Shown here piece by piece: positions 2-61,891 of a stretch of DNA of 64,000 bases. The translations under genes were made by a program, and so were the position numbers. The stretch's first letter is position 1. Every line of letters starts with the position of its first letter. Origin of the DNA: an uncultured delta proteobacterium (GTDB lineage Bacteria > Desulfobacterota > Desulfomonilia > UBA1062); assembly GCA_963847605.1 (NCBI GenBank), contig CAWKAM010000043.1:7636-71635 (forward strand), written 5' to 3'. The notes under the pieces were generated by a model. The model was not told the DNA's origin. It did no database searches and worked only from the letters and a program-made list of their open reading frames with translations.

Positions 2-175
2 CTCATGGTGGTAGGCCACCTGCCCTTCATGGAACGGCTCGTGTCGTATATCATTACCGGGACGCCGGAAAAGCCTGTGATCCGGTTCAGGAACGGCGGT
101 ATCGTATGCCTTGAGTACGACCGGATGGAAAATACATGGGCCATAAGATGGGTGCTGACACCTGAGATTGCCTGA
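2..175 (+). CDS. 3' end of a phosphohistidine phosphatase SixA-like gene (partial, runs off the window start)
   Basis: Frame 2 is open from the window edge to TGA at 173..175. It translates to LMVVGHLPFMERLVSYIITGTPEKPVIRFRNGGIVCLEYDRMENTWAIRWVLTPEIA, which resembles the SixA C-terminus (vGH-P motif followed by the terminal beta-strands). Only 57 residues are visible. Confidence 0.4.
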   Translation, partial: LMVVGHLPFMERLVSYIITGTPEKPVIRFRNGGIVCLEYDRMENTWAIRWVLTPEIA

Positions 176-179
176 AAAG

Positions 180-10259: not shown

Positions 10260-10327
10260 ATTCAAGAAGAATCTAATGAATACCGATTATGCACTTACTA
10301 ACTTCTTTCCCACAGGGAGGTGCTTGA

Positions 10328-10906
10328 ATGGAACGGTTCAGAAATCGGCAAAAAGGCGGCTTTACCCTCGTTGAGCTTGCCCTGGTGCTGGTGATCATCG
10401 GATTATTGATTACAGGGATACTCAAAGGAGAGGCCCTCATACGGAATGCCAAGGTCAAGAACCTTGTCAATCAGAAGGAAACACTCACCGCGGCCTTCTA
10501 TACCTATTACGACAGGTATAACTATTATCCGGGAGATGCACCTAACCCGGCCGGCAATAATCTCCCCGTGCAAGGCCATAACGACAGTGGGAATGGAAAC
10601 GGCCAGGTTGATGCAACAGAGGAATGGATTCTCTTTCAAGATCTTACACTTGCACAGATCATCAACGGCGGTTATACCGGAGCGGCAAACAGTTGCCCGA
10701 CGAACGCCTTCGGGGGCACAGCAGTAATCCTATACACTACCGTCCCGGCGATCAATGAAAACTGTGTAATTTTCAACCAGATTCCGCCTGATGTGGCCCA
10801 GGAAATCGACAGAAAGTATGATGACGGGGTTTGGAATACAGGAAGCATACGGGCCGACACTATATATACCAATGCTGCGAACAAGACGCTCTACTGGGGC
10901 ATGTAG
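10328..10906 (+). CDS. prepilin-type N-terminal cleavage/methylation domain protein (candidate major pilin / GspG-like)
   Basis: MERFRNRQKG|GFTLVELALVLVIIGLLITGIL is a classical G-FTLxE prepilin signal. Confidence 0.8.
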   Translation: MERFRNRQKGGFTLVELALVLVIIGLLITGILKGEALIRNAKVKNLVNQKETLTAAFYTYYDRYNYYPGDAPNPAGNNLPVQGHNDSGNGNGQVDATEEWILFQDLTLAQIINGGYTGAANSCPTNAFGGTAVILYTTVPAINENCVIFNQIPPDVAQEIDRKYDDGVWNTGSIRADTIYTNAANKTLYWGM

Positions 10907-11135
10907 CGCCAGTGCAGGATCTCGGATGTCTTAGTTTGGCACGCCTGGAGTAAGGGCTTGGTGGGTCAGGCCTTTATACAGAAGATAAGGGTGTGGGGTT
11001 GGGTGAAATGTATATCTCGGGTCAGAGGTGGTGGAAGAAAAACCCATTGAGTCATCTCCGGCACAAGAACCTTGTGGGTAAAGATCATTGAGTGATCCTT
11101 CAACCTGAACGGCGTAAGGAACTGGAACGAACCCC

Positions 11136-12770
11136 ATGGAAAAAAAGCGCATTGGCGATCTTCTCAAAGATGAGGGGATAATCAGTGATAAGGAGATCGG
11201 TCTTGCCCTTCTGGAGCAGCGTGCCACAAGGGAACGGGTCGGTGACATACTCATCCGTTTAGCCCTTGTCACCCAAACCGAGCTTGCCCAGGCCGTTGCT
11301 AAACAGTTCGGCATCGAATTCCTTGAGTTACGCCACTTTTCACCGCAAAAAGAAGCCCTCTCTGCTTTGCCGATACAATTCGCACGAGACAACTCGTTAC
11401 TCCCGATAGGTGTCGAGGACACCACATTGATTGTTGCTACCAGCGAGCCGGACAACTCAAAGCTCTTGGACCTTGCTTCTCGAGTCTCAAAGAAACGCGT
11501 CCGCTGCGTGGCGGCATCTCCCTCGCAGATACAGAAACATATCGAAAAAGACTATTACCTCCTGGAGCACCCCATTGACGAAGAGATCGAACAGCAGCTT
11601 GAACACGCCAAATATAATCCGCATGATGTGGATACGGAAAAGCTGGTAAGATTGCTGATCATGTCCGCCATCAATTCACGTGCAACCGACATCCACATCA
11701 CCCCTACGAACAAGACAACCCAGATACACTACCGCATCGACGGCATACTCTACCCGTTTTACTCCTTTCCCATCGAGGTGCATTCCAGGGTTATCTCGAG
11801 CATCAAGGTCAAAGCCGAGATGGACATTTCGGAGCAGCGCAAGCCCCAGGATGGCAGGCTCTCCTTTGATTTTCTCAATGAGAGCTATGATATCCGTGTC
11901 TCTACCTTAAAAGTCACCAATGGGGAGAACATGGTGATGCGCATCCTGTCTTCCTCAGAGGAGTTGTATAACATCCGGAGCCTTGGCCTGGATCATGACG
12001 ATATCACCCAGCTCAGGGACCTGCTCCACAAGCCCTACGGCATGGTCCTCGTCTCAGGACCCACAGGGTCGGGAAAAACCACGACGCTGTATGCGGCGCT
12101 ACGTGAGATAAGCTCCATAGAAAAGAATATCGTGACTGTTGAAGACCCCATCGAGTACCAGTTCCCGCTGATCCGCCAGACGCAGGTCAATGAAAAGGCC
12201 GGATATGTCTTTTCAAGTGCTGTAAGGGCATTCCTCAGGCAGGACCCGGATGTCATCCTCATCGGGGAGATACGTGACGGCGATACGGCGACCATGGCGC
12301 TACGCGCAGCTCAGACAGGGCACCTTGTACTTTCCACGGTGCATGCCAACGATGCCTCAGGGGCCATCCCCAGGCTTAAGGACCTTGGCATGAAGGACTT
12401 CATGATTTCATCTTCCCTGATATGCGTCATAGCCCAGAGGCTCGTCCGGGCACTCTGCCCGCACTGCAAGCAGGCATATGGTTCAGGAGAGGATGAGAAC
12501 CGCATATTCGGAATCAAGCCCGGCACAACCCTATATACCGCTGTCGGATGTCCGAGGTGCATCAAGACAGGCTACCTCGGCCGGATCATGGTGGCAGAGA
12601 TTCTCGTCGTTTCAAGGGAGATCGAGCGTCTCATCTCTCTTGGGTCACACCCCTTTGAGATCAAGGAAAAGGCCGTCCAGGAAGGCCTGGTTACCTTAAA
12701 CGGCGACGGTATCCGCAAGATACTCAGTGGCAGGACGAGCTTCGCCGAGGTCTGGAGGGTGCTGCGGTAA
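11136..12770 (+). CDS. GspE/PilB/MshE-family secretion ATPase with an MshEN-type N-terminal domain
   Basis: Walker A is GPTGSGKTTTLYA, and the Asp box, Walker B and His box are present (ILIGEIRD). The tetracysteine is CPHC...CPRC. The N-terminus carries two RxGDxL...Q repeats. Confidence 0.95.
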   Translation: MEKKRIGDLLKDEGIISDKEIGLALLEQRATRERVGDILIRLALVTQTELAQAVAKQFGIEFLELRHFSPQKEALSALPIQFARDNSLLPIGVEDTTLIVATSEPDNSKLLDLASRVSKKRVRCVAASPSQIQKHIEKDYYLLEHPIDEEIEQQLEHAKYNPHDVDTEKLVRLLIMSAINSRATDIHITPTNKTTQIHYRIDGILYPFYSFPIEVHSRVISSIKVKAEMDISEQRKPQDGRLSFDFLNESYDIRVSTLKVTNGENMVMRILSSSEELYNIRSLGLDHDDITQLRDLLHKPYGMVLVSGPTGSGKTTTLYAALREISSIEKNIVTVEDPIEYQFPLIRQTQVNEKAGYVFSSAVRAFLRQDPDVILIGEIRDGDTATMALRAAQTGHLVLSTVHANDASGAIPRLKDLGMKDFMISSSLICVIAQRLVRALCPHCKQAYGSGEDENRIFGIKPGTTLYTAVGCPRCIKTGYLGRIMVAEILVVSREIERLISLGSHPFEIKEKAVQEGLVTLNGDGIRKILSGRTSFAEVWRVLR

Positions 12771-13984
12771 TGATCTATTCATACAATGCCCTCAAGAAGG
12801 ATGGAACGATATTCTCGTCCAAGGGCAACTTTGAGAGCATCGGGGAGCTGATGGATGCCCTTTCTTCTCAGGAATTGATACTTGTCAGCTACCGCGAGCA
12901 GAAGTACCAGATATTCGAGACCATCAAGACCCTCACCCAACCCAGTGTAAAGAGGATGGAGATAGCGGAGTTCTGTGAATCGCTGGCCTCCATGATCGGC
13001 AGCGGCCTGCCGCTCTTGGACTCCATGGAAAGCATCAAGGACACGATCAGGGTGAAACGCTTGAGAGAAGCGATCGAGGAAGTGGTCAAAGAGATTGCCC
13101 AAGGAGAATCCTTATCAGGGGCCTTTTCCCACCAGCCTGCCGTATTCCCCGAGATGCTCATGTTCTTCTGCAATATCGGGGAAGAGACCGGTACCATTCA
13201 AACTGCCCTGAGTAACACGGCGGATTATTTAAAAAGAGTGGACGGTATCGTATCTCAAGTCAAGAGGGCCCTTATTTATCCATGCTTCGTGGTATGTGCC
13301 ATGCTGGGCGTCATCATTTTCTGGCTCTTTTTCGTTCTCCCCCGACTGGTCGCAACATTCAAGGAGATCAATGTCCAGCTGCCAAATATCACGGTAAGCC
13401 TTGTCAACTTCGTCAAATTCTCAGAGCAGAACTGGTTCATATACCCCCTTGCGACTGTGGGCCTCATTGCTTTGTTTGTCATTCTCGGAAGGATTCCAAA
13501 GATGCGTTTTCTGTTGAGCCGCACTGCCTTCCGTCTCCCCGTGATCGGCGATCTGCTGAAATGCTCCACCCTTACCCTGGTATTCTCGAACATGTCACTC
13601 ATGCTTCGCTCCGGGGTGACCCTCACAAAATCGCTCGATATACTTGAGAAGATCTTTCATAATGATCTTGTCCGCTCGGTCATCGTGCGCATACGGGAAG
13701 AGACGAACATGGGGAATTCGCTGCTGGAGGCCTTCAAGAGGACCGACTTCTTTGACGCCATCACATTAAAGATGATCAGCGTCGGAGAGAAGACCGGCAC
13801 CTTGGATCAGAGACTAAGCTATCTGGCTGACACCTACGAACTCAAGACATCACGGTTTGTAGAGGTAATGGGTAAGATGATTGAACCCATAGCCATAGTC
13901 ATGACCGGAGGCATCTTCGTCTTTATCGTCATTTCGCTGATCGGGCCGGTGTACGATCTCATGTCAAAGCTCGGAGGAGGCTAG
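12770..13984 (+). CDS. type II secretion / type IV pilus platform protein (GspF/PilC/MshG family)
   Basis: Two T2SSF repeats are present, with conserved LSGAF and GEETG / GEKTG motifs, plus three TM segments. The start overlaps the ATPase stop (TAATG). Confidence 0.9.
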   Translation: MIYSYNALKKDGTIFSSKGNFESIGELMDALSSQELILVSYREQKYQIFETIKTLTQPSVKRMEIAEFCESLASMIGSGLPLLDSMESIKDTIRVKRLREAIEEVVKEIAQGESLSGAFSHQPAVFPEMLMFFCNIGEETGTIQTALSNTADYLKRVDGIVSQVKRALIYPCFVVCAMLGVIIFWLFFVLPRLVATFKEINVQLPNITVSLVNFVKFSEQNWFIYPLATVGLIALFVILGRIPKMRFLLSRTAFRLPVIGDLLKCSTLTLVFSNMSLMLRSGVTLTKSLDILEKIFHNDLVRSVIVRIREETNMGNSLLEAFKRTDFFDAITLKMISVGEKTGTLDQRLSYLADTYELKTSRFVEVMGKMIEPIAIVMTGGIFVFIVISLIGPVYDLMSKLGGG

Positions 13985-13988
13985 AGAG

Positions 13989-14633
13989 ATGAACCAAGAC
14001 CTTGCCTCCAAAAGGAACATCGTTTTTCCTGCCCAGTCATCATCCCGCAAAGGATTTACCCTCATCGAATTGGCCTTCGTGCTTGTTATTGTCGGCCTGC
14101 TCCTCGGGCTTGGTGCGCAGCTCATACCCATGCTGGTCACGCAAAATAAACTTTCCGATGACAGAACGCGGGTCAAGGAGGCGAAGACCGCGCTCATCGG
14201 GTATGCCCTGGCCACCGGAAGGCTGCCGTTTGCAAGTTTAAGCACCAATGGATTAGAGACTCCAAACCAATATAATGGGTATCTTCCCTGGTCCACGATC
14301 GGAATTACCGGCGTGGATGCGTTTCAAACCACGCTCTTCTATGCCGTTGACTTCAACCTTACTACAGCAGGATCCGTAACCCAGACCGTGATTGGCAAGC
14401 TCATATCAGACACCCCCCCCCTCCCACCGAATCAAAAACTCTACAGTGACCTTGGAGCCGTGAGGGTAGCCTTTGTGGTCATCTCTGCCGGTCAAAATCG
14501 GATTTTAAATAATCCTCCCAATAATATTAATGGCAATACATTCGCTGCTCCCTCTGCCCCGGTCACATCGAACTATGATGATATCCTCGAGTCTGAGAGC
14601 CTGTCCCTTCTCAACGGAATAGCCCCTCCCTGA
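13989..14633 (+). CDS. prepilin-type N-terminal cleavage/methylation domain protein (long-leader minor pilin)
   Basis: ...SSSRKG|FTLIELAFVLVIVGLLLGLG is a G-FTLIE prepilin signal after a leader of about 21 residues. Confidence 0.8.
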   Translation: MNQDLASKRNIVFPAQSSSRKGFTLIELAFVLVIVGLLLGLGAQLIPMLVTQNKLSDDRTRVKEAKTALIGYALATGRLPFASLSTNGLETPNQYNGYLPWSTIGITGVDAFQTTLFYAVDFNLTTAGSVTQTVIGKLISDTPPLPPNQKLYSDLGAVRVAFVVISAGQNRILNNPPNNINGNTFAAPSAPVTSNYDDILESESLSLLNGIAPP

Positions 14634-14704
14634 TAAAATAACCTAAAGAAGCCTAATCGTAATTCCGAGAACATAGGTAGCAGGAGAGGTGTACCTCCTC
14701 TGCG

Positions 14705-16150
14705 TTGACGAACATGAAGGATATATTGACAAAAATTGTCTCCATGAAAATGGGCCCGGCGAAAGGCATTGCCGTTATCCTGGGTGAAGAGGAACATGTC
14801 CTTGCATCATATAGTGGTGCAGGGCGTGACATAACTCTCAAGGATATCAAAACAGTTGAGTCCTCTTCACTGAAAGATATCTCCCGTAAGGCTCCCATGC
14901 TATCGCTCTGTTTCTCACCCAGGGGCATCTATTCGGACGTGGGTGAATTTTCCTGCATCAGTAAAGAGGCCACAACGGCTCACATCCGCGCAACCGTGGA
15001 TAAGATCGGTCTCTTCAGAGATGACTACTGCATCACATTCACCAAGATCCAGGATATTGATAACCTCAAGAGTAAATATTCCTACCTGGCCATTCCTCTA
15101 CATGAGATGAACAAGACCGAGCTTATCGATGAGAAGGAGGCCCTTGTCGACATGTTCTGCCCCATCGAGGCATCCATTGCAACAGCGGTGGGAACCGTAG
15201 ACCCGAACATGGTGATCATTGTTTATGAAGATACCCGGTTCGTCCGCATTATCGGCGTAAAGGCCGGGGTCATTTATTATCTCATAACCATTCATTCTGC
15301 CGAATCCTTCGATGCCCTCGCCGACACTGTTGCAGGTGTCAGGGAGATGACTTCCATGTTGCTGAGTTCATATCAGGAAAAATCCCAGAAGGTCTATGCC
15401 ATCGGACAAGGAGAGATTAGTATATCCGATCTCGAAAAGCATGATGTCCACGCAGAGCCGTTTAGTTTGAACGAATACGGGGAAACCGATCCTCAAACAA
15501 TAGTGCTCTTGGGGACTGCCATGAATCCCTGTTATGACTTCACCCCTGAAAGGCTGCACCAGACCAGAAGGATTGTGGGGTATGCAAAGATATCTTTTGC
15601 CGTATCAATGGTCATGATCATGGTCTCGGCTTTGTTCTTCGCCTTGGGGTGGGGTAATGCCATCAATGCACGAAGCTACGAGAAGAGGACCCATGCGGCA
15701 ATCTATAAAAGCTCCCGGGAGCTCAAGGTGCTGGAAGATGATTATGCATCTCTCAGCAAGAACCTGAATCTGACAAACATAAACAATATTATCGAGACAT
15801 ATAAGGACTTCCAGGCAGAGCCCAAGTTGCAATCCATCATGGAAACAATCTCCCAAAGGGTCCCGGGAAACGTCTTCATCACCAAGATCGAGGTCAACAG
15901 GGCAACCACACAAGAGGGAACGCCCCAGGCACGGGTTGCACCGGCCGCAGCAAACGCCCAGCGCACCTCTCATGCAAAATCATTTGATCTTGTAATACAA
16001 GGCATCATCAACCTGTCATTTCCGCAGTCCAAAGAGGTCTTCTCCTCCTTTATCATAGCCGTGCAGGAGGTCTATAAAGTCTCTAAGGCCGAATACGTCC
16101 ATAAGGAAAATGGTGCGGAATTCAGTTTGAATTGCGAGATGAAGCTATGA
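14705..16150 (+). CDS. PilM/PilN-fusion-like (MshI/GspL-like) inner-membrane pilus assembly protein
   Basis: A cytoplasmic domain of about 295 aa has an actin-like pattern (MVIIVYEDTRFVRIIGVKAGVIYY). It is followed by a single TM segment (ISFAVSMVMIMVSALFFALGW) and a coiled-coil periplasmic part. The assignment rests on architecture and position between pilC and the secretin, not on motif-level identity. Confidence 0.5.
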   Translation: MTNMKDILTKIVSMKMGPAKGIAVILGEEEHVLASYSGAGRDITLKDIKTVESSSLKDISRKAPMLSLCFSPRGIYSDVGEFSCISKEATTAHIRATVDKIGLFRDDYCITFTKIQDIDNLKSKYSYLAIPLHEMNKTELIDEKEALVDMFCPIEASIATAVGTVDPNMVIIVYEDTRFVRIIGVKAGVIYYLITIHSAESFDALADTVAGVREMTSMLLSSYQEKSQKVYAIGQGEISISDLEKHDVHAEPFSLNEYGETDPQTIVLLGTAMNPCYDFTPERLHQTRRIVGYAKISFAVSMVMIMVSALFFALGWGNAINARSYEKRTHAAIYKSSRELKVLEDDYASLSKNLNLTNINNIIETYKDFQAEPKLQSIMETISQRVPGNVFITKIEVNRATTQEGTPQARVAPAAANAQRTSHAKSFDLVIQGIINLSFPQSKEVFSSFIIAVQEVYKVSKAEYVHKENGAEFSLNCEMKL

Positions 16151-16545
16151 GGTACTACAGGGTAGCCCTGACAATCGGCATCATCAGCGCCGTGCTGGTG
16201 ACATCCTCCTTTGCCTATTATATTCACACCGCAAGGAAGGTAACATATAACCGCACAAAGCTGGAAGCTATTCTGTCAGCGAACTCTCATCGCAAAGACT
16301 ATGTCAAGAAGATCGAGTCCATCAAGGCATACAGCTCCAAACTGATCGCCCTATCACATGAGCGAAATACAAATGTCGACTATGAGATTATATTAAAAGA
16401 CTATGATGTAAAAAATTTGTTTTCCGAGGTTGCATCGACATATAAAAACGACATGTTCTTTCTTGACAAGGCAACTGTGGAGAGCACCTCTGCAGGGATC
16501 ACGGTCACCATGAAGGGGTTCAAGCTCGGGAGCGGGAATGAATGA
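16132..16545 (+). CDS. PilO/MshJ/GspM-like bitopic membrane protein (hypothetical)
   Basis: The protein has an N-terminal TM segment (VALTIGIISAVLVTSSFAYYI) followed by coiled-coil and alpha/beta parts. The call rests on size and gene order only. Confidence 0.35.
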   Translation: MRDEAMRYYRVALTIGIISAVLVTSSFAYYIHTARKVTYNRTKLEAILSANSHRKDYVKKIESIKAYSSKLIALSHERNTNVDYEIILKDYDVKNLFSEVASTYKNDMFFLDKATVESTSAGITVTMKGFKLGSGNE

Positions 16546-16979
16546 AGCTCGATAAGACATTAGCAATGATCTTTATCCCTCCCCTTGCGGCGGTTATCCT
16601 TTGTGTCATCTCTCCTTACCTTATTCGCGAACATAAAAACTACACCCCCGAGCAGCCTGAATTTCTCACCTATGTTGACAAACTGGGTGTTTTCACCCTC
16701 GGGGATGATCCAGACCCCCCACCAAAGGATATCAGGGATGTCTTCCGCCACGAGTGGATACTGCCTATGGCAGATCCGAGGGCACAACTTACAGCCGACC
16801 CGGTCAATTTAACGATGATCGTTGAGGCAGGCGCGGATAGCTACTGCATCATCAATGGACGGCAAATGCACCTTGGGGACAAGACGGATAACTTTCGGAT
16901 AACATCCATCGGGTCGAACCAAGTTTCTATCACTTACAACAACGGTACCAGGGAGATCCACCATGTCAAAGTATATTAA
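16542..16979 (+). CDS. PilP/MshK/GspC-like small membrane-anchored protein (hypothetical)
   Basis: The protein has an N-terminal TM segment and a C-terminal beta-rich segment (IINGRQMHLGDKTDNFRITSIGSNQVSITYNNG) resembling PilP/GspC HR domains. It lies immediately upstream of the secretin. Confidence 0.35.
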   Translation: MKLDKTLAMIFIPPLAAVILCVISPYLIREHKNYTPEQPEFLTYVDKLGVFTLGDDPDPPPKDIRDVFRHEWILPMADPRAQLTADPVNLTMIVEAGADSYCIINGRQMHLGDKTDNFRITSIGSNQVSITYNNGTREIHHVKVY

Positions 16980-18576
16980 GTATATAGTTCTCACGGCTAG
17001 TTGTTGCTTTTTCCTTGCTGGTTGCACGGCTGCAAAATTATTGAAGAAAGAGGATTTCTCCATCGAGAAGGAAAAGGCCAGCATAACCCCTGTGGAAAAG
17101 GCGGAACCTTCTAAGCCCTTAGTCACGGAGAAGGTCGAACCTGTGAACCAGTTGAAAGACAAGACCATCACACTCAATGCCAGCAATGCCGCATTCACCG
17201 ATGTATTCTCTGCCATAGCGCAAAGGGCCGGATTGGACCTGATAGTGGACTCCCGCCTCATTGCCGGGGAAGGGGCTGATATGTCGAGGCCATCCCCCGA
17301 TTCGGGGAAAGAGAAACAACAGACCAAGGGCTCCATCGTTCTCCCGCCCGTTTCCATAGCCTTTAACGGGACACCTCTGGAAGAGGCCCTTGAGAATCTC
17401 ACTTCAGCCCTGCACATATTCTACCAGGTGAACGGACACACCCTCATGGTAAGGGGCACTGAATCGAGGACGTATCACCTCAATTTCCTCTCTTCACAGA
17501 AGCAGACAACAATGACGGTGGGGGGGGATGTTATCAGCAGCTCTTCAAGCAGCTTGCCGGTAAGCTCTTCATCAGGCAGTTCTTCGGGTGTCTCATCAAG
17601 CAACAGCGGGTTGAATCCGCTGAGCGGTGAGTTCACCATCAAGGATTCCATCCCTTCGGCCACCAGCGACATATGCGCGCAGGTCGAGGACCAGGTTAAG
17701 GCCTCGCTTACCCGTGACGGAACATACTCCATCAACAGGGCCCTGGGTTTTCTCGAGGTCAATGACAGGAGAGACGCCATAGAGCGCATCGATGCATACA
17801 TAAAGACCATCAAGACATATTACAATTCACAGGTCCTGATCACGGCCAAGATCATAGAGGTATCCCTTAATGACACCAGCCAATACGGCATTGACTGGAC
17901 AAGCACACACCTCAGCGCCAGTGGCTTTGCCTTCAACCCCATTCAGCAGACACTTGCACTCTCCACGGATAATCTTACACCGGCATTCGAAGTCCAAGCA
18001 CACTCGGATGTGCATGGCTTTGATGCCACCATGAATGCACTGGAGCAATTCGGGAACATCAAGGTCCTCTCGAACCCGCAGGTGAGGGTGACCAACGGAC
18101 AGCCGGCTTTGATCAGTGTTGGGACAAACACTTCATATATCCAGCAGATAGAGCTCACCACCACCAGCACCCAAGGGGGGACAACGATCACCCAGCCTAA
18201 TGTGACCCTCGGGTCTATCTTCGACGGCATCATGATGGGTGTCGTGCCGAATATCGACCTTGATACCGGCTCGGTAAACCTGAGCATCACCCCCATCAAG
18301 AGCCGCCTCGAGAAGCTCGATGAACGCTCCATAAGCGGGAACACGTATACGCTGCCGACGGTGGGGCTTGAAGAGGCAACCACCCAGATCCGGGTAAAAA
18401 GCGGCAACATCATCGCCCTGGGCGGGCTCATCAGCAAGAACCTCACGCAGCAGAACAATAGCATACCCATCCTGGGCGATATCCCCATCATCGGATACCT
18501 CTTCAGCCAGCAGACAAAGGGGGTTGAGACCGTCGAATTGGTTATTCTCCTGGAGCCTACAATCCTGGCCCAGTAA
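16963..18576 (+). CDS. secretin (MshL/PilQ/GspD family), lipoprotein
   Basis: The lipobox is FFLAGC. The secretin core includes VLSNPQVRVTNGQPALISVG and IPILGDIPIIGYLFS. A Ser-rich linker follows the N-terminal domain. Confidence 0.9.
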   Translation: MSKYIKYIVLTASCCFFLAGCTAAKLLKKEDFSIEKEKASITPVEKAEPSKPLVTEKVEPVNQLKDKTITLNASNAAFTDVFSAIAQRAGLDLIVDSRLIAGEGADMSRPSPDSGKEKQQTKGSIVLPPVSIAFNGTPLEEALENLTSALHIFYQVNGHTLMVRGTESRTYHLNFLSSQKQTTMTVGGDVISSSSSSLPVSSSSGSSSGVSSSNSGLNPLSGEFTIKDSIPSATSDICAQVEDQVKASLTRDGTYSINRALGFLEVNDRRDAIERIDAYIKTIKTYYNSQVLITAKIIEVSLNDTSQYGIDWTSTHLSASGFAFNPIQQTLALSTDNLTPAFEVQAHSDVHGFDATMNALEQFGNIKVLSNPQVRVTNGQPALISVGTNTSYIQQIELTTTSTQGGTTITQPNVTLGSIFDGIMMGVVPNIDLDTGSVNLSITPIKSRLEKLDERSISGNTYTLPTVGLEEATTQIRVKSGNIIALGGLISKNLTQQNNSIPILGDIPIIGYLFSQQTKGVETVELVILLEPTILAQ

Positions 18577-23604: not shown

Positions 23605-23739
23605 ATGAAGCGCACATTTCAACCGCACAATACAAGGCGGAAACGTACGCACGGATTTCTGGTTCGTATGCGCACCAAAGGCGGCAGGCTGGTCATCAAC
23701 CGGAGGAGGGCCAAGGGACGGAAACGTCTGTCGGTCTGA
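23605..23739 (+). CDS. rpmH: 50S ribosomal protein L34
   Basis: This gene is not in the ORF track because it is too short. My own translation is [44 protein letters not shown], a canonical L34 sequence. Confidence 0.95.
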
Positions 23740-24107
23740 TGCCAGACGAGACATTCCCCCGAATAGAGCGGCTGAGGAAACGGATTGATTTCAAAAGGGC
23801 TGAAAAGAACAAGGTTGCACGTCTGGTCACCAAACACCTGGTCATCCTTGCTGCTCCAAACGAATGCACCCATGCCCGCATCGGTATTACCGCAAGCAGG
23901 AAGATCGGCGGTGCTGTTATAAGAAACAGGATAAAAAGGCTCTTGCGAGAAATTTACAGAAGAAACAAGCATCTGTTTCCTCAAGGCCATGATTATATCC
24001 TGATCGCAAAAAACGACATGACGGATATTACATACCAAGACCTGCTTCAGGAGATAGCAAGGGCTATTGGATCACACACATGGGAAAAGCAATACTCATT
24101 GAACTGA
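23739..24107 (+). CDS. rnpA: ribonuclease P protein component
   Basis: The start overlaps the rpmH stop (TGATG). The protein is basic, carries the RNR-like motif IGGAVIRNRIKRLLRE, and follows rpmH in the conserved gene order. Confidence 0.85.
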   Translation: MPDETFPRIERLRKRIDFKRAEKNKVARLVTKHLVILAAPNECTHARIGITASRKIGGAVIRNRIKRLLREIYRRNKHLFPQGHDYILIAKNDMTDITYQDLLQEIARAIGSHTWEKQYSLN

Positions 24108-24289
24108 TACGCCTCTACCAGAAGGCCGTCTCGCCGATGCTCACGCCCTCATGCAGATTTCACCCGAGCTGCTCTGAGTATGCAGCCCAGGCCATAGAGA
24201 AGTACGGTACGGCACGAGGCCTCCTGAAAGCGGCATGGAGAGTGCTTCGCTGCAACCCGTTTCACAAAGGCGGATTCGATCCCGTATAA
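24080..24289 (+). CDS. yidD: membrane protein insertion efficiency factor YidD
   Basis: The sequence LIRLYQKAVSP...CRFHPSCSEYA...RCNPFHKGGFDPV is present. Confidence 0.9.
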   Translation: MGKAILIELIRLYQKAVSPMLTPSCRFHPSCSEYAAQAIEKYGTARGLLKAAWRVLRCNPFHKGGFDPV

Positions 24290-24313
24290 TACTCATCCGG
24301 AGATGAAGACAAG

Positions 24314-25900
24314 ATGGAAAAGAGGACCCTGCTTGCCATAGTTTTATCAATGGCCATTCTGTTTGTCTGGGGTATTGTATTTGACCAAACAAAAATAAAA
24401 GGCACACCACAGCCAAAACAGAAGACCGTAACCGTCACACCGAGCCAGCCGGCAAAACCCATGAATGTTGCATCCCCTGCTGCAACGCCTCAGTCAAACA
24501 TCAAGTCGGCAAGCTCTGTTGTTGTGGAAACGCCCCTGTATACGGCCACATTCACCACCAAAGGCGCCCAGCTCGTCTCTCTGAAATTGAAAAAATACTC
24601 CACCACCATGGATAAAGATGCAAAGCCGGTGGAGCTCTTAAAGGCTCCTATGCCCACACTCCTGCTGAATGGCGGCTTTTCGGATGCGGGCCTTATGTAT
24701 GAATCCTCCCAACAGGGCACCGTCACTATGGCCGATACACCACTGGCAATCGAGTTCCGTACGGAGGCTTCAGCGGGTATCACATTAAAGAAGATTTTTT
24801 CCATAGACCCCAAGACCTATCTGCTGGGATACCAGGCCGTTATCGAAAATCACACCGCCGCTCCTGTGTCCGCCTCGGGAGAGATCCTGTTCAATAATAC
24901 CTATCCCCTGGATGAAAAACGAAGCGGTTACGCCTTTGAAGGCCCGGTCCTGCTGAATGACAAGCACCTTGAGGAATTCAAGTTGGACAAGGTCAAGAAT
25001 GTCGGAAGTTATAGGGATTTCACCGGAGAGGTCAAATGGTTCGGGTTTGAGGACAAGTATTTCCTCCAGGCCATCATCCCCAAGGCCGCATCAAGCACCA
25101 CGCTCACTCTCAAGCGTACCGATGAAAAGACTGTTGAGATCCACTATGCCTTTGCACCTGCGACTATTCAGGCCGGATCTGCTCTCATCAAGGATAATCT
25201 CATATTCATAGGCCCCAAGCAGCTGAAAACTTTGGAGTCTGCGGGCTATGACTTGAACAAGGCGTTGGATTTCGGCTTCTTCGACATCATCGCCAAGCCC
25301 CTGCTCATCGCCATGAACTGGATTTATAAATACGTGGGGAGTTTCGGGTGGACCATTATCATCCTGACAATCATCATCAAGATCGTGCTCTATCCGTTGA
25401 CCCTCAAGAGCTTCACCTCTATGAAGGAGCTCCAGAAGATCCAGCCGCTCATGAAGGAGATCCAGCAACAATACAAGGATGACAAGCAGAAGATGAATCA
25501 GGAGCTCATGCGGCTCTATCAGGAACACAAGATAAATCCCATGGGCGGCTGCCTACCCATGCTCCTGCAGATCCCTATCCTCTTTGCCCTCTACCGGGTT
25601 TTTTACCAGGCCATAGAGCTCAGACACACTCCCTTCCACATCGTCGGGACCTACCTGCCTGATCTCTCTGCTATGGATCCGTACTTCATCACCCCCATCC
25701 TCATGGGTGGCAGCCAGTTCGTTATGCAGAAAATGACACCGACTACCGGTGACCCCACCCAGCAGAAGGTCATGCTCTTCATGCCCGTGGTCTTCACCTT
25801 CCTGTTCCTGAAATTCCCATCCGGCCTTGTCATCTACTGGCTTGTGAGCAATATCCTCTCAATTGCCCAGCAGGCCTATATAAACAGGAAGCACGTTTAG
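24314..25900 (+). CDS. yidC: membrane protein insertase YidC
   Basis: An N-terminal TM segment is followed by a large periplasmic domain. The 60-kDa insertase core includes PLTLKSFTSMKELQKIQPLMKEIQQQYKDD and GCLPMLLQIPILFALY. Confidence 0.95.
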   Translation: MEKRTLLAIVLSMAILFVWGIVFDQTKIKGTPQPKQKTVTVTPSQPAKPMNVASPAATPQSNIKSASSVVVETPLYTATFTTKGAQLVSLKLKKYSTTMDKDAKPVELLKAPMPTLLLNGGFSDAGLMYESSQQGTVTMADTPLAIEFRTEASAGITLKKIFSIDPKTYLLGYQAVIENHTAAPVSASGEILFNNTYPLDEKRSGYAFEGPVLLNDKHLEEFKLDKVKNVGSYRDFTGEVKWFGFEDKYFLQAIIPKAASSTTLTLKRTDEKTVEIHYAFAPATIQAGSALIKDNLIFIGPKQLKTLESAGYDLNKALDFGFFDIIAKPLLIAMNWIYKYVGSFGWTIIILTIIIKIVLYPLTLKSFTSMKELQKIQPLMKEIQQQYKDDKQKMNQELMRLYQEHKINPMGGCLPMLLQIPILFALYRVFYQAIELRHTPFHIVGTYLPDLSAMDPYFITPILMGGSQFVMQKMTPTTGDPTQQKVMLFMPVVFTFLFLKFPSGLVIYWLVSNILSIAQQAYINRKHV

Positions 25901-25909
25901 GAGAGAAGA

Positions 25910-26644
25910 ATGGATCAGGACTATAAAGAATTTGAAGCCAAGACCGTGGATGAGGCCATCATCCTCGCCATGAAAACTTTTCATGCCGATTTCGAAGACC
26001 TCGACATCAAGGTCCTTTCCGAAGGCTCCAAGGGACTGTTTGGCCTCGTAGGGACAAAGACGGCAAAGATAATGGCCAGGCGAGCAAAGGCCGGACCAAA
26101 ACAGACCTCGACCATCACAGAAGATAAGACAACTCCTGCCGCTGTATCTGAACCGAAGCCGGCGCCACGTACCGAGGCACAAACACCTACACCGGATGTC
26201 CTCCTTGAGGCAAAGGAGATCATCAGCACGCTCTTAAATTTCATGAATATGCCCTGCGAGATCAAAATCCGCGAAGAGGGTATCCTTGAGATTATAGGTG
26301 ACGGCTCAGGGCTGATCATCGGAAAGCGCGGGCAGACACTCGATTCACTGCAGTTCCTTCTTAACCGGATCGTGAACAAGTTAAGGCAGGAACCTATTTA
26401 TATCACATTGGATACGGAAGGGTACCGCCAAAGGCACGTGAACCATCTCAAGTCCATGGCCCTGAAAATGGGGCAAAAGGCAAGACGCACAGGCCAGTCC
26501 ATCTCTTTGGAAAAGATGAACCCTTATGACCGCAGGATCATCCACCTTGCCCTCAAGAACGAGAACGGGCTCAATACCAAGAGTATCGGCGAGGGCATCT
26601 ATAAAAAAGTGGTAATCGTACCGAGGAAGGCATCGAGACAGTAA
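25910..26644 (+). CDS. jag: Jag/KhpB RNA-binding protein (Jag_N, KH and R3H domains)
   Basis: It lies after yidC. A KH-like motif (IIGKRGQTLDSLQFL) and an R3H-like motif (MNPYDRRIIHLAL) are present. Confidence 0.85.
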   Translation: MDQDYKEFEAKTVDEAIILAMKTFHADFEDLDIKVLSEGSKGLFGLVGTKTAKIMARRAKAGPKQTSTITEDKTTPAAVSEPKPAPRTEAQTPTPDVLLEAKEIISTLLNFMNMPCEIKIREEGILEIIGDGSGLIIGKRGQTLDSLQFLLNRIVNKLRQEPIYITLDTEGYRQRHVNHLKSMALKMGQKARRTGQSISLEKMNPYDRRIIHLALKNENGLNTKSIGEGIYKKVVIVPRKASRQ

Positions 26645-26824
26645 CGGACACTATCTATGCCGAGTCGACCCCCAGAGGTCACGGCGCCATGAGCATCATC
26701 CGCATAAGCGGGGTGCATACCCTCGATATCATTAAAAGGATCAGCTCACGGCCCAATCCGGCAGCCCCATACCCAAGCCTTTGCAATCATCAATAATCAT
26801 GAAGGCGGCATCATAGACCAGGTT

Positions 26825-27955
26825 ATGATGGCGTTCCATCCCGGCCCCAACTCCTATACCGGAGAGAATCTTGCTGAGATCAGCTGTCACGGCAACCCGC
26901 TGGTGGTGGACAGGATTATGGAGACAATCGCATTGACCGGTCTCGCCCGCCTTGCACACAAGGGGGAGTTCACCAGAAGGGCATTTCTGAACAACAAGAT
27001 AGACCTCCTCCAGGCCGAGGCCGTAGGCGCATTGATAGGATCTTCAAGTTCTGCAGGCTGCGAGATGGCTCATGCCCTTCTGAAAGGTGAGCTCTCGGAG
27101 CGGATAAAGGCCCTCATCACGGATCTTATGGGTATCCTTGCCGACATTGAGGCCTCCTTCATCACCGATGACTCATCAATCCGACCCGATGAGCTGTTTC
27201 AGAGACTTGAGGACGCCACCTCCCGGACCAAGGGGCTTCTCAAGGACGCTAACCAGGCCAAAGGGGTTTATAAAGGGATCGTTACAACCATTGCAGGGCT
27301 TCCAAACGTGGGCAAGTCCTCCCTCTTCAATGCTATTCTCGGATACGACAGGGCTATTGTCCATCATGAGGAGGGAACGACCCGGGATGTGATCAGGGAG
27401 CACCTGAGCCTGGGCGGGATCGATTTCGTCTTCCACGACACCGCCGGCATCAGGGAAACCGCATCAGGTCCTGAACAGATAGGCGTGGAAAAGACTATTG
27501 AGACATTGAAGGGTTCAGACCTTGTCCTGTATGTAGTGGATGTCCGGGAAGGAATCAAACCCCAGGAAAGACACATGCTCTCATTGGCAGACAAGACAAT
27601 CGTGGTGATGAACAAGGTCGATCTCATCAAAGACACCCTTAAGCCTTTAGAGGGATATGATACCGTAGCCGTCTCGGCAAAATTCGGACACGGCATTGAT
27701 GACCTTTTATCCGCTATGCGGCAGGCATTCCCCCATGACCAGCCTTTGGTGTTTCTGGACAGGCACGCGCATCTGCTTGGCAAGACTCTTGAGAGCCTTG
27801 TGTCATGCTCAAAGGCCATTGCGGACGGTTTCACCGCAGACGTGCTCACCATTGATCTGAAACAGGCCGTAGAGTATCTCAGACAAATGATGGGTGAGGC
27901 TGTTGACGAGGATATCCTTGAGAGGATCTTCTCAAGTTTCTGCATCGGCAAATGA
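26825..27955 (+). CDS. mnmE: tRNA modification GTPase MnmE (5' end disrupted: the first ~60 codons lie in another frame, see findings)
   Basis: The protein carries PNSYTGENLAEISCHGNP, the G-domain motifs GLPNVGKSSLFNA, DTAG and NKVD, and the C-terminal FCIGK. The upstream frame encodes DTIYAESTPRGHGAMSIIRISG. Confidence 0.9.
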   Translation: MMAFHPGPNSYTGENLAEISCHGNPLVVDRIMETIALTGLARLAHKGEFTRRAFLNNKIDLLQAEAVGALIGSSSSAGCEMAHALLKGELSERIKALITDLMGILADIEASFITDDSSIRPDELFQRLEDATSRTKGLLKDANQAKGVYKGIVTTIAGLPNVGKSSLFNAILGYDRAIVHHEEGTTRDVIREHLSLGGIDFVFHDTAGIRETASGPEQIGVEKTIETLKGSDLVLYVVDVREGIKPQERHMLSLADKTIVVMNKVDLIKDTLKPLEGYDTVAVSAKFGHGIDDLLSAMRQAFPHDQPLVFLDRHAHLLGKTLESLVSCSKAIADGFTADVLTIDLKQAVEYLRQMMGEAVDEDILERIFSSFCIGK

Positions 27956-28494
27956 TGGACGACAATCTCATAACATGGATTCATGAGCTGAGGCGGTTCA
28001 ACGGCAAGCTCCATCTCATGGGGCCGGCCATGCTGGACGGCATCGAGCAGGAGCTTGAAGTCATGCTGCCGCTGCTGATGCGCATACATGAGCCTGTGCT
28101 TGCCGATCTCGGCTCAGGGTCGGGCCTGCCTTCAATCCCCTACAAGATCCTCCACCCGGACTCACACCTCTACCTGATTGAGCGCAGTGTTAAAAAATGC
28201 ACTTTCCTGCGTCATGTCATTGAGATACTCAGGTTGGAGGGAGTGGAGATCATCTCACGAGACCCCCTGCATGAATATATCGGGCGGTTTGATGCCGTGC
28301 TTGCCCGATCGTTCTCACCATTATCGACACTGACAGATGTCTGCCTCAAAATCCTTAAGCCAAACGGGAGACTTTATTACCTCTTCACCGGCAGCACACC
28401 TGAATTGGCCCAAGACTTTCAGCCAGAGAACGTTATTTCGCATACGTGCGCAGGTTTTTCTCTGAACCTTGCAATCTTCAATCACCTTCCCTGA
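27952..28494 (+). CDS. rsmG: 16S rRNA (guanine527-N7)-methyltransferase RsmG
   Basis: The SAM-binding motif is LADLGSGSGLPSIP. The start overlaps the mnmE stop (ATGA), and the gene order is conserved. Confidence 0.85.
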   Translation: MMDDNLITWIHELRRFNGKLHLMGPAMLDGIEQELEVMLPLLMRIHEPVLADLGSGSGLPSIPYKILHPDSHLYLIERSVKKCTFLRHVIEILRLEGVEIISRDPLHEYIGRFDAVLARSFSPLSTLTDVCLKILKPNGRLYYLFTGSTPELAQDFQPENVISHTCAGFSLNLAIFNHLP

Positions 28495-59578: not shown

Positions 59579-61120
59579 TCAAGACGGGCGATGCTTTACG
59601 GGAAATCCTCTCATTCCCATAATCCACAGGAGCCCGAAATACAGCGCACCGCCAACCACCACACAGAGAAGCAGCACAGCGCCGCTTTTTATTGTCAACC
59701 CCGGTCTCCACAGATACCTGTGGGCTAAAGGTATCAGCGTAATACCCATAATTGCTGCGGCGGCAATCATCTTTCCATACTGCCTTAGGTACTCTTTGGG
59801 AATGTGGATTCCCGCCTTTTTCAGATACTTATGTTGAACAACGAGTTGAGCGAACACCGAGATACTGCTTGCAAGGGCGATCCCTGCATGCTTCAAGAAC
59901 GGCATGAGGATAAGACAGAACACAATATTCACAACGAGACTCAGCCATGAAATGTTTACTACGACCTTGGCCTTCTGCATGGCATAGAGTGCCTGGGTCT
60001 GTATGCGCGTATACCCCACTGCCCAGAGGCTTAATCCATACATCTGTAATGCATAGGCCGATGCCAGTGCATCATTGAACGTAAAGGCCCCGCGCATGAA
60101 GAGTATCGTAAAGATGGGCCTGGCCAATACACATGCGCCTATAGTCGCCGGGATTGTGAAGAGCAGCACTGCCAAAAGACCCCTGCCCATGAGAAAAGAG
60201 AATTGTTCCGTGTCCATCCGTGCAGAAGCGGAGCTCATGGCAGGCAGCATCACATTGCCCACGGCAAAGGCGAATATCCCTAAAGGGAGCTCGAGTAATC
60301 TATTGGCATAATAGAGATAAGAAACACTACCTTCGGAGAGCAGTGAGGCAAAGAGTGTCCCTATAAGCACATTGATCTGGTAGATGGAGGCCCCGATGGC
60401 GGCTACACCTAAAAGGCGGAACACCTGCTTTACCCGCGAGGAATGGAAGGTGGTAGTGAAACGCAAGGGAATTCCTCGCTTCAACAAAGGGGGCATCTGG
60501 ATGATGATCTGAGCGATCCCTCCTATGATCACCCCCCACGCAAAGGCATCCGCAGGCGAAGAGAATACGTGGAAGACCACAAAACAGAGCAGCGGCACAG
60601 AGATCATGAAGAGGTTCATGAGGATCGGGGCAGCGGCAGGCGCTGCAAAGTGGCCTATGGAGTTGAGTATCCCCATAAAGAGTACGGCAACACCGATAAG
60701 GAGTATGTACGGGAACATGATGCGGGTAAGGTGAACCGTAATGCCGAAAACACTACTGTGGAGAAATCCAGGAGCCATGAGGGCCACCAAGGCAGGTGCT
60801 ATGATCTCGCCGAGGATCACTACCACCACCAGGCCGTAGAACATCAATGTCATGATCTCCTGGGCCATGCGGTAGGCACTATCTATCCCCTCACGCTCCT
60901 TGACCTCGCTGAATACAGGGACAAATGCAACACTGACCGCCCCTTCGGCCATGAATCTCCGCAAGAGATTGGGGATCCTGTTTGCAACGACAAAGGCATC
61001 GGCAAGAGGCCCTGCCCCGAGAAGCCAGGCCATCACCATGTCACGGATAAAACCTAGGATACGGCTTATAGCAGTGAGCCCACCGACCGTAGCAACGTTC
61101 TTCCTGAAGCCGTCCTTCAT
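59579..61120 (-). CDS. murJ: lipid II flippase MurJ
   Basis: The N-terminus is TVGGLTAISRILGFIRDMVMAWLLGAG...DAFVVANRIPNLLRRFMAEGA. The protein has about 14 TM segments and is 513 aa long. Confidence 0.95.
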   Translation of the reverse strand: MKDGFRKNVATVGGLTAISRILGFIRDMVMAWLLGAGPLADAFVVANRIPNLLRRFMAEGAVSVAFVPVFSEVKEREGIDSAYRMAQEIMTLMFYGLVVVVILGEIIAPALVALMAPGFLHSSVFGITVHLTRIMFPYILLIGVAVLFMGILNSIGHFAAPAAAPILMNLFMISVPLLCFVVFHVFSSPADAFAWGVIIGGIAQIIIQMPPLLKRGIPLRFTTTFHSSRVKQVFRLLGVAAIGASIYQINVLIGTLFASLLSEGSVSYLYYANRLLELPLGIFAFAVGNVMLPAMSSASARMDTEQFSFLMGRGLLAVLLFTIPATIGACVLARPIFTILFMRGAFTFNDALASAYALQMYGLSLWAVGYTRIQTQALYAMQKAKVVVNISWLSLVVNIVFCLILMPFLKHAGIALASSISVFAQLVVQHKYLKKAGIHIPKEYLRQYGKMIAAAAIMGITLIPLAHRYLWRPGLTIKSGAVLLLCVVVGGALYFGLLWIMGMRGFPVKHRPS

Positions 61121-61153: not shown

Positions 61154-61639
61154 TTAATTCCCCACGACCTTTGCCCTGATACGGGCATCCTTGGTCTTGA
61201 TATTCTCCTGATCGGTCTCCACATGGACCAAACCGAAAAAGAATTTATCAATCTGGGTTGGCTGATATCGCAATTCAACCGAAATGGACTTGCCGGCGTC
61301 CAGCTTCACCTTGCCCTGCTGGGAAACGGAAAGCACGTTTGAGGGATTTGCGGATATACTGGTAATAGTGATGGTCTCTTTACCCTTGTTCGTAATAGTG
61401 ATCATCTTCTTATTTATTGAACCCACCTTTACCGGCCCGAGATCGATCTCCATAGGCACGATGGAGAGGACCTCCACGATCTTAGCCTTCATGGTCAACT
61501 TCAGAACCGGCATGGCCGGATCATTGGTCTCGACCTCGATATTCTTTGTATAATCACCTCTCATATTTCTGGCGGAAATACTTACAACAAGCTTCTGCGT
61601 CTTGCCCGGCTCAATTTCCTGCCCTCCCGGGGCAGTCAC
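61154..61639 (-). CDS. DUF1573-type protein, part downstream of the in-frame TGA (same frame as 61649..61891)
   Basis: It contains the distal half of the first DUF1573 domain (IEPGKTQKLVVSIS...IEVETND) and a second DUF1573/PapD-like domain. The GTG start in the track is probably not a true start. Confidence 0.6.
   Translation of the reverse strand: MTAPGGQEIEPGKTQKLVVSISARNMRGDYTKNIEVETNDPAMPVLKLTMKAKIVEVLSIVPMEIDLGPVKVGSINKKMITITNKGKETITITSISANPSNVLSVSQQGKVKLDAGKSISVELRYQPTQIDKFFFGLVHVETDQENIKTKDARIRAKVVGN
61619..61635 (-). promoter_or_regulatory. hairpin 13 nt downstream of the in-frame UGA (candidate bacterial SECIS-like element)
   Basis: On the minus strand, CUGCCC (61635..61630) pairs with GGGCAG (61624..61619) around a CGGGA loop, giving 6 consecutive Watson-Crick pairs of which 5 are G-C. 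Confidence 0.3.
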
Positions 61640-61648
61640 TGTTACCCC

Positions 61649-61891
61649 TCAACAGGGCTTGGGTTTGAATGTAAGCTTCTGGTCGCCGACATTCTTGAAT
61701 ATGAACTCGTGTGATAAATCCTTACCCTCGGGGATTGATCCCGCATCGTAGACAGTCTGATCCACCTGGATCTTCGCTGCAGCATGGCATGAGATCTCAG
61801 CGATGAGGGAAAGGGTAAGACAAGCTACGAACAAGATCGCAAACTTTAAGAATTTACCCATAGAATCACCTCCGTTTTTTATGGCTAACAC
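61649..61891 (-). CDS. DUF1573-type protein, signal peptide and proximal half of the first domain, ending at the in-frame TGA
   Basis: The signal peptide is MGKFLKFAILFVACLTLSLIA. The DUF1573 beginning is YDAGSIPEGKDLSHEFIFKNVGDQKL, and the ORF ends ...KPKPC-TGA. Confidence 0.6.
   Translation of the reverse strand: MLAIKNGGDSMGKFLKFAILFVACLTLSLIAEISCHAAAKIQVDQTVYDAGSIPEGKDLSHEFIFKNVGDQKLTFKPKPC

Follow-up and report, generated by a model that had tools for sequence, protein, structure and literature searches.

Does the in-frame TGA in a minus-strand gene of an uncultured delta proteobacterium end one protein ahead of a second, or is it read as selenocysteine (Sec) within a single exported protein? 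The question is raised by a locus in a 64,000-nucleotide stretch of contig CAWKAM010000043.1 (positions 7,636 to 71,635; GenBank assembly GCA_963847605.1), hereafter the window, in which two open reading frames (ORFs), 61891..61649 and 61639..61154, lie in the same frame on the minus strand and are split by a TGA at 61651..61649. The TGA is followed by three sense codons, GGG GTA ACA, and then by the GTG that opens ORF 61639..61154. This layout had been described in an earlier reading made from the DNA letters alone (the sequence-only reading), and both the arrangement and its read-through sequence are confirmed here, the product being ...FKPKPC-[TGA]-GVTVTAPGGQEIEPG... Judged from sequence comparison, the window gene is very probably a genuine selenoprotein gene, and the best explanation overall, held with high confidence, is a single gene for an exported selenoprotein in which UGA is read as Sec, rather than two ORFs. 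The gene is composed of the following features:

61154..61861, minus strand: proposed complete selenoprotein gene, with ATG at 61861..61859, UGA as codon 71, stop TAA at 61156..61154 and a 235-residue precursor
61649..61651, minus strand: in-frame TGA, proposed Sec codon 71, present as TGA in all 26 loci compared and aligned with the invariant first Cys of C-x-C
61652..61654, minus strand: TGT codon of Cys70, directly before Sec and the sole Cys of the mature protein
61781..61861, minus strand: predicted Sec-type signal peptide (residues 1-27), MGKFLK followed by a hydrophobic core and C-H-A, with cleavage before AAK
61867..61873, minus strand: Shine-Dalgarno-like GGAGGTG, 5 nt upstream of the ATG at 61861, read from the sequence

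The evidence that carries this answer is comparative. Related DNA was gathered by a protein search, from the contigs encoding its matches, and by one scan each of genome and metagenome contigs, which gave the window and 25 further loci (26 in total) from independent genome and metagenome assemblies of Desulfomonilia and Thermodesulfobacteriota, all 25 sharing the gene architecture seen in the window. The matches of the protein search were almost only 161-residue proteins, representing the downstream ORF cut at the same point, with identities from 96% to 42%, and the orthologous loci span 43-96% protein identity. Named sources include metagenome-assembled genomes (MAGs) of Desulfomonilia bacterium (95% and 92% identity) and a Thermodesulfobacteriota bacterium (51%). 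Among the carriers of the gene are JBEKDT01 (Desulfomonilia bacterium SPRUCE 18), JBEKLI01, JALOOZ01, the 545-kb contig Ga0373875_000004 and contig_31817 of ERZ25039473. The sequence-only reading had proposed to look in orthologues for TGA as opposed to TGT or TGC at this codon, and the outcome was uniform: the codon 71 position is TGA in 26/26 loci, always as Cys-TGA-Gly, in 19 distinct 51-nt contexts.

The Cys codon before the TGA is TGT, and once TGC. Both flanking codons, for Cys and for Gly, vary synonymously, and all four synonymous codons occur for the Gly and Ala downstream, which shows that the region is not merely frozen. Relative to the window sequence, the proportion of synonymous differences (pS) is 0.53-0.79, which places synonymous sites near saturation, and the ratio of nonsynonymous to synonymous change (dN/dS) is 0.08-0.21 over the 44 codons upstream of the TGA and 0.12-0.48 downstream. 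The TGA outlasts synonymous saturation between two halves under purifying selection, which argues that the stop is maintained by selection. A conserved in-frame UGA with coding sequence conserved on both sides, the pattern by which bacterial selenoproteins are recognised, is what these loci display. The string Cys-TGA-Gly is not diagnostic by itself: on the minus strand of locus L005, at about 5669 of the reverse complement, TGC-TGA-GG stands at the end of an alpha/beta-hydrolase gene with a sirohaem-synthase-like gene next in the same frame, a false positive of the pattern search.

No orthologue with a Cys codon was found in any of the 26 loci, in the word-indexed protein search, or in an exhaustive HMMER search that covered 1.84 billion representatives. 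Every close single-stretch relative returned by the latter has 119-171 residues, all beginning at the same place, and its best 150 matches are mostly giant multi-repeat immunoglobulin-like (Ig-like) proteins. Among the proteins seen was P0028 (250 aa, ENA, from a 945-nt contig), whose first ~75 residues correspond to the post-TGA segment at 82% identity and the remainder of which belongs to an AMP-binding enzyme (PF00501/PF13193); the fusion is probably not real but the product of a chimeric metagenome contig.

These data bear directly on what the sequence-only reading had regarded as the main alternative, namely a sequencing or assembly error, or a recent nonsense mutation, by which the codon would really be TGT/TGC-like or the gene a dead pseudogene. 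One T/C-to-A change would convert TGT/TGC to TGA, and the same assembly has at least one apparent frame-disrupting defect, a split of mnmE near 26745-26790. Against this, the TGA recurs in every one of the 26 independent assemblies, from varied samples and lineages and with synonymous sites near saturation, no locus has a Cys codon, and purifying selection acts on both halves. Error or mutation is therefore excluded as the main alternative, and what probability it retains is extremely small.

The frame read from the ATG at 61861 gives MGKFLKFAILFVACLTLSLIAEISCHAAAK...FKPKPC, TGA, GVTVTAPGGQEIEPGK..., and continues to the TAA at 61156..61154. This ATG is likely to be the true start, rather than the mechanical GTG at 61891, and an identical GGAGGTG is found upstream of the orthologue ATG in L001 and L002. 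The n/h/c layout of the signal peptide and its motif, [HS]-A before the cleavage site and [AS]-[AP]-[KR] after it, are kept in most orthologues, with C-A-P-K in L026 and L027. A lipoprotein reading was considered and rejected, as the Cys of the signal peptide is absent in L002 and L016 and its variation among orthologues argues against lipid attachment. In nearly all orthologues the mature region has one Cys only, the one adjoining the TGA codon.

If the UGA encodes Sec, the protein should make structural sense across it, and the sequence-only reading had assigned two DUF1573/PapD-like domains to the read-through product. Profile searches, run with Sec entered as Cys, uphold the first of these and revise the second:

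61481..61771, minus strand: domain 1, DUF1573 / HYDIN-VesB-like Ig domain, residues 31-127, bearing the Cys-Sec dyad
61196..61471, minus strand: domain 2, ASH / choice-of-anchor-D Ig-like domain, residues ~131-222, without Cys; Pfam ASH 32.1 bits, NCBIfam NF012200 49.3 bits

Domain 1 gives one match to Pfam PF07610 (DUF1573) that runs across the TGA, over residues 31-127 and profile positions 1-97 of 98, with 75.9 bits versus a cut-off of 26.1, and it also matches PF22544 at 95.6 bits. Domain 2 is better described as ASH/choice-of-anchor-D and has no C-x-C motif. Beyond this, a profile search and Foldseek, with 2qsv, HYDIN and CEP192 as top matches, led no further than the generic ASH/PapD-like Ig fold, from which no function can be read, and a PDB sequence search with the protein found no match.

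The position of the TGA within domain 1 is informative. The S-C-G-C-T motif given for DUF1573 in the sequence-only reading is borne out, since [ST]-C-G-C-T is by far the commonest form among the Cys-type proteins. In alignments in which the TGA was entered as X, to avoid bias, K-P-C-X-G-[VA]-T aligns with K-P-[ST]-C-G-C-T in three MAFFT modes, so that the TGA falls, as had been predicted by counting residues, on the first Cys of C-G-C and next to a retained Cys. This retained Cys occupies the Ser/Thr column, and Ala or Val occupies the column of the second Cys; the motif is C-U-G-A or C-U-G-V in all 26 loci. Nothing but the two Cys and one Gly is invariant across 68 Cys-type DUF1573 proteins. 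A UGA opposite a conserved Cys, a further mark of selenoproteins, is thus found here, with the Cys forms being distant paralogues (25-40% identity). In the AlphaFold model of one Cys-type relative, P0104 (predicted local confidence, pLDDT, 90), A-C-G-C lies in a turn between strands 72-79 and 84-88. More distant Cys-type relatives in L006 (65..403) and L007 (3001..3339), both from Planctomycetota MAGs, and in L024 and L025 share HEFIFKNVGD and carry S-T-C-K-C-T or P-T-C-Y-C-T in place of S-C-G-C-T; the existence of these forms shows that the central Gly of the motif is not obligatory.

The domain assignment also bears on the possibility of two genes, in which translation would stop at the TGA to yield a 70-residue exported peptide and the 161-residue ORF would be translated independently, with re-initiation 9 nt further on, at the GTG. 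This is how the locus is annotated by gene callers and NCBI: the public calls in L001 (9779..9991 and 10001..10486), and likewise in L002 and L026-L029, give a 67-70-residue ORF and a 161-170-residue ORF, and the 161-aa downstream ORF P0010, from a MAG of Desulfomonilia bacterium, bears the NCBI name 'choice-of-anchor D domain-containing protein'. Moreover, GAGG(G/C) stands 5-7 nt upstream of the GTG in most loci as a possible Shine-Dalgarno sequence, formed from TGA-GGN. This GAGG is, however, an automatic by-product of Sec-Gly (TGA GGN), and the split would fall in the middle of a beta-sandwich domain spanned by a single Pfam match, leaving the first half with a signal peptide and the second without one. 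Nor is there a conserved start codon, the GTG being replaced by GTA in five contexts and by GTC in one (L020). Two genes would also leave unexplained the compensatory changes in the hairpin described below, and why the stop is always TGA and never TAA or TAG. Consistent termination followed by an independently translated gene, for which the sequence-only reading had asked orthologues to be inspected, is accordingly not what they display: the GTG is unconserved and one domain would be cut. We consider two genes very unlikely, and the DUF1573 selenoprotein gene is systematically mis-annotated as two ORFs in public records.

A Sec-encoding UGA in bacteria is expected to be accompanied by a selenocysteine insertion sequence (SECIS) immediately downstream, and the sequence-only reading had pointed to a hairpin, CUGCCC/GGGCAG with loop CGGGA, 13 nt after the TGA, as having suitable geometry. 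The structures proposed are:

61619..61635, minus strand: upper stem-loop of the proposed bacterial SECIS, CUGCCC at 61635..61630, loop CGGGA at 61629..61625 and GGGCAG at 61624..61619
61612..61641, minus strand: possible lower stem, CAGU at 61641..61638 with AUUG at 61615..61612, from the RNAalifold consensus and the single-sequence minimum free energy (MFE) structure

The consensus bacterial SECIS (bSECIS) model of Zhang & Gladyshev, as given in PMC13188914, allows loops of 3-9 nt and upper stems of 4-16 bp, and calls for a UGA-loop distance of 16-37 nt, an MFE of at most -7.5 kcal/mol and a G at the first or second loop position, after which G or U is usual. The hairpin falls within all of these limits, with a 5-nt loop in which positions 2 and 3 are both G, a 6-bp stem and 19 nt between the UGA and the loop, and its predicted fold energy is -11.1 kcal/mol alone and -18.1 kcal/mol in its 52-nt context. 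Like the E. coli fdhF type of bacterial SECIS, it is a stem-loop that lies within the coding region just 3' to the UGA and has a small apical loop with G as its second base and another G as its third. The upper stem of the E. coli fdhF SECIS starts about 11 nt after the UGA, compared with 13 nt here. The two differ in that they share no sequence similarity and that no bulged U is evident in the window hairpin, to which SelB binding is predicted.

Conservation among the loci strengthens this assignment. All six stem pairs are formed (100%) in 17 distinct sequences, as opposed to 32-69% when the partner is slid by 1-3 columns, and the alignment of these 17 sequences holds two compensatory pairs, one changing from U-A to C-G and the other from C-G through U-G to U-A. 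The coupling is visible at the level of codons: the Thr codon ACT always occurs with the partner CAG (15 contexts) and ACC always with CGG (4 contexts), and GGA at codon +9 occurs only alongside GTC at +6, preserving the U-A pair. The Pro codon, whose G is the second loop base, is CCG in 19/19 contexts, and the Ala/Val codon ends in C in 19/19. Synonymous-codon identity peaks over the hairpin, where synonymous sites are frozen save for one loop position; the fifth loop base is free, with A, G, T and C all occurring, so that the loop is C-G-G-G-N. RNAalifold recovers the identical helix together with the weaker lower stem, for which support is weak, as some of its pairs are disrupted in other loci and none has changed on both sides.

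Two further explanations concern how the UGA is decoded. A reassigned code in which TGA is sense genome-wide (as in codes 4 or 25) has nothing in its favour beyond the in-frame TGA itself. As the sequence-only reading had stated, TGA is an ordinary stop in this DNA: it terminates 26/58 large window ORFs, including rpmH (23605..23739), and it ends the orthologous gene itself in L002, L005, L021-L023 and L026. Since rpmH and other ORFs end in TGA, reassignment cannot explain the in-frame codon, and this candidate was rejected, its probability being vanishingly small. When the window was scanned for further genes split by TGA, nothing emerged but noise from alternative frames and neighbouring genes that share a frame, such as DUF72 (168..917) and PEBP (978..1526).

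The other explanation is that UGA is recoded to a residue other than Sec, either to Cys by a selC*-type tRNA(Cys)UCA or to Trp or Cys through near-cognate read-through that the hairpin stimulates. Cys would serve at this site, which is a Cys column, and tRNA(Cys) with a UCA anticodon, carried by some deltaproteobacteria, could insert Cys at UGA; in Desulfobacterales relatives this tRNA can translate Sec-UGA as Cys (PMC5389517). On the other side, the hairpin conforms to the SelB-type bSECIS model, the equivalent column is Sec in the DUF1573 selenoproteins already described, and TGT/TGC orthologues would be expected if Cys were adequate, yet none was found. A cultured representative of the lineage also uses Sec: in Desulfomonile tiedjei the selD gene carries a Sec-UGA (PMC5389517), and a USC-type selenoprotein has been described in the same organism (Haft & Gwadz, bioRxiv 10.1101/2022.07.06.499078). 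This cultured member of the Desulfomonilia indicates, by analogy and at the level of the class, that the lineage uses Sec. Non-Sec recoding is accordingly judged quite unlikely, although the tRNA(Cys)UCA counts among the points that weigh against decoding as Sec.

Other points weigh on the same side. No selA, selB, selD or tRNA-Sec was found within the 64-kb window or the fetched loci, the search for the sel genes consisting of a crude SelA/SelB/SelD motif search and a Pfam scan of 50 window ORFs; the tRNA search, which covered the window and 12 loci, detected none of any type. The hairpin taken as a single sequence has z = -1.8 to -2.2, with 6-9 of 200 shuffles folding equally well, and since this is only a modest advantage over the shuffles, the significance of the hairpin rests on the 26-locus comparison. 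There, the covariation comes from few independent events, essentially two clades and one further change, and part of the stem encodes the invariant T-x-P-G-G, so that protein constraint explains part of its conservation. As to function, a redox role for the protein is read from its motif only, and we know of no established function for DUF1573. An Rfam scan of the whole window at gathering thresholds matched no family. To our knowledge Rfam has no general bacterial SECIS model, which makes this null result uninformative, and it is listed as neutral, giving support neither way.

Taken together, the comparative evidence shows an in-frame UGA and a downstream hairpin of SECIS geometry that are both under selection, a correspondence of Sec with Cys, and a normal genetic code. 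The interpretation as Sec put forward in the sequence-only reading is supported, in that each of the refutation tests it named, where run, favoured Sec.

How, then, does this gene relate to selenoproteins already described? The OS_HP2 selenoprotein was described in 2007 from the metagenome of Olavius symbionts (Zhang & Gladyshev, PMC1976440), the Global Ocean Sampling (GOS) study lists OS_HP2 as pfam07610 with motif UxC (PMC2398784), and DUF1573 selenoproteins are listed with motif UGC in reviews (PMC9312934, PMC13188914). Sec at the first Cys of the DUF1573 C-x-C motif is thus already established, as a computational prediction, and the prior description of OS_HP2 lowers the novelty of the window gene, not the correctness of the Sec reading. 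Both share the PF07610 domain, Sec at the column of the first C-x-C Cys, a predicted SECIS hairpin just past the UGA, and a deltaproteobacterial or anaerobe setting. They differ in that the published motif is U-G-C, whereas here it is C-U-G-[A/V], with the second Cys lost and a Cys directly before Sec; the subfamily to which the window protein belongs also has an extra C-terminal ASH/choice-of-anchor-D domain, murJ downstream in most readable flanks, and no Cys-form orthologue found.

The scores agree with these differences. The NCBIfam model NF041425, 'OS_HP2 family (seleno)protein', matches domain 1 with 61.5 bits, below its curated cut-off of 100, and the orthologues L002, L005 and L026 score 78.8, 56.6 and 76.4 bits, all below 100; the ordinary Cys-type single-domain proteins P0104 and P0112 reach 55-87 bits. 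The window protein is not a member of the curated OS_HP2 subfamily. A profile search returned only unnamed or 'DUF1573' Cys-type proteins and none named OS_HP2; U-G-C members of OS_HP2 include MDJ0815992.1 and CAB1076174.1. The Cys-type DUF1573 proteins (P0104, P0112, P0030) are homologous over the whole domain, at 25-40% identity, with the same fold, a signal peptide or lipoprotein-like N-terminus, and the motif in the same turn. In contrast to the window protein, they lack a UGA and carry Cys at i and i+2; most have a single domain or multiple repeats, and their sources are Bacteroidota, Planctomycetota and others.

A second comparison is one of chemistry. The C-terminus of animal thioredoxin reductase (TrxR) is Gly-Cys-Sec-Gly, and the window protein likewise has adjacent Cys and Sec followed by Gly (P-C-U-G here, G-C-U-G in TrxR). 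MerB-like bacterial 'CU' selenoproteins are also known (Haft & Gwadz, bioRxiv 10.1101/2022.07.06.499078); they share the adjacent Cys-Sec and, as here, have database entries truncated at the CU site. A dipeptide of this kind can close into an eight-membered selenenylsulfide ring or serve as a soft-metal ligand. Their folds are unrelated to that of the window protein, so that the resemblance is of chemistry and not of homology: the dyad of the window protein lies in an internal beta-turn of an exported Ig-like domain, that of TrxR in a flexible C-terminal tail, and that of the MerB-like proteins in an organomercurial-lyase fold.

On these grounds a mechanism can be proposed. At the UGA of codon 71, the ribosome would meet the 6-bp G+C-rich hairpin 13 nt downstream, which would act as a bacterial SECIS and recruit SelB-GTP-Sec-tRNA(Sec); Sec would be inserted and translation would go on to the TAA ending at 61154. 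The predicted 235-residue precursor would be exported across the inner membrane by its Sec-type signal peptide, and the mature protein, of about 208 residues, would consist of two Ig-like (ASH/PapD-like) beta-sandwich domains. Sec71 would replace the first invariant Cys of S-C-G-C-T, in what the model of the Cys-type relative suggests is an exposed turn between two strands. With the second motif Cys changed to Ala or Val, the Cys before Sec would substitute for it and form a vicinal Cys70-Sec71 dyad. As the mature protein lacks any further Cys, this vicinal pair is the only possible intramolecular partnership, and most likely, as the motif suggests, Cys70-Sec71 would cycle between a selenol/thiol and an intramolecular selenenylsulfide as an envelope redox centre. 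The main functional alternative for the dyad would be the binding of a soft metal or metalloid.

The neighbourhood of the gene adds a further element:

59579..61120, minus strand: murJ (lipid II flippase family), 33 nt downstream of the selenoprotein gene

The syntenic genes of L001, L002, L028 and L029 match PF03023 (MurJ), and a start of the form M(K/R)DG... lies ~35-45 nt past the stop in most loci with enough downstream sequence, L026 and L027 being ambiguous. No terminator-like site was seen between the two genes in the window, and they are probably co-transcribed, judging from the sequence of the region. Because of this apparent co-transcription where the flank is readable, a partnership with envelope biogenesis can be conceived: the proteins may form a distinct, obligately Sec-dependent, exported Ig-like subfamily in which C-x-C has been rebuilt as a TrxR-like P-C-U-G selenenylsulfide, serving as a periplasmic redox or chalcogen/metal-handling partner of lipid II/envelope biogenesis in Desulfomonilia and related Thermodesulfobacteriota. 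This full proposal is speculative, and we hold it to be rather unlikely as a whole.

Other genes of the window deserve a brief record. At 5117..7168 on the plus strand lies a DUF255 (Thioredox_DsbH) thioredoxin-like protein of 684 residues, from a thiol-redox family; no TGA was seen in its frame. At 10328..18573 (plus strand), a type IV pilus / type II secretion-like cluster holds two N-methyl prepilin-like proteins, a T2SSE ATPase (11136..12767), T2SSF (12770..13981) and a secretin (16963..18573), with no Pfam match for several of its ORFs (7466..10256, 14705..16976). An origin-proximal set at 23605..28491 (plus strand) comprises rpmH, rnpA, yidD, yidC (24314..25897), jag/khpB (25910..26641), mnmE and rsmG (27952..28491); dnaA was not seen among the ORFs scanned. 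Within it, mnmE (trmE; 26644..27952, plus strand) appears disrupted: in ORF 26825..27952 the match to Pfam TrmE_N does not begin until profile position 62, the absent N-terminus, TDTIYAESTPRGHGAMSIIRISGVHTLDIIKRISS..., lies in another frame from ~26644 to a stop near 26794, and the frame changes around 26745-26790, with no canonical start codon upstream of DTI. The disruption may be an assembly indel error or a real frameshift or pseudogene.

For annotation, the consequence is immediate, in that a gene of this kind is, in all public records examined, split into 70- and 161-residue 'hypothetical' or 'choice-of-anchor D' proteins which the NCBI OS_HP2 model does not rescue, and the orthologues collected here could seed a model that corrects this. 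Current understanding is not overturned, as Sec in DUF1573 and Sec-rich deltaproteobacteria are well documented, and the only features new to specialists are the Cys-Sec active-site layout and the adjacency to murJ. With these, the DUF1573 selenoproteins would gain a second active-site layout, vicinal Cys-Sec as opposed to U-G-C, which argues for a redox or soft-metal centre in the C-x-C of this very widespread family, and an exported selenoprotein adjoining murJ, apparently without a Cys-form orthologue, would be added to those known. Should the proposed link to lipid II and the envelope prove true, it would be the first clue to what the large DUF1573 family does, as well as a rare case of a selenoprotein linked to envelope synthesis.

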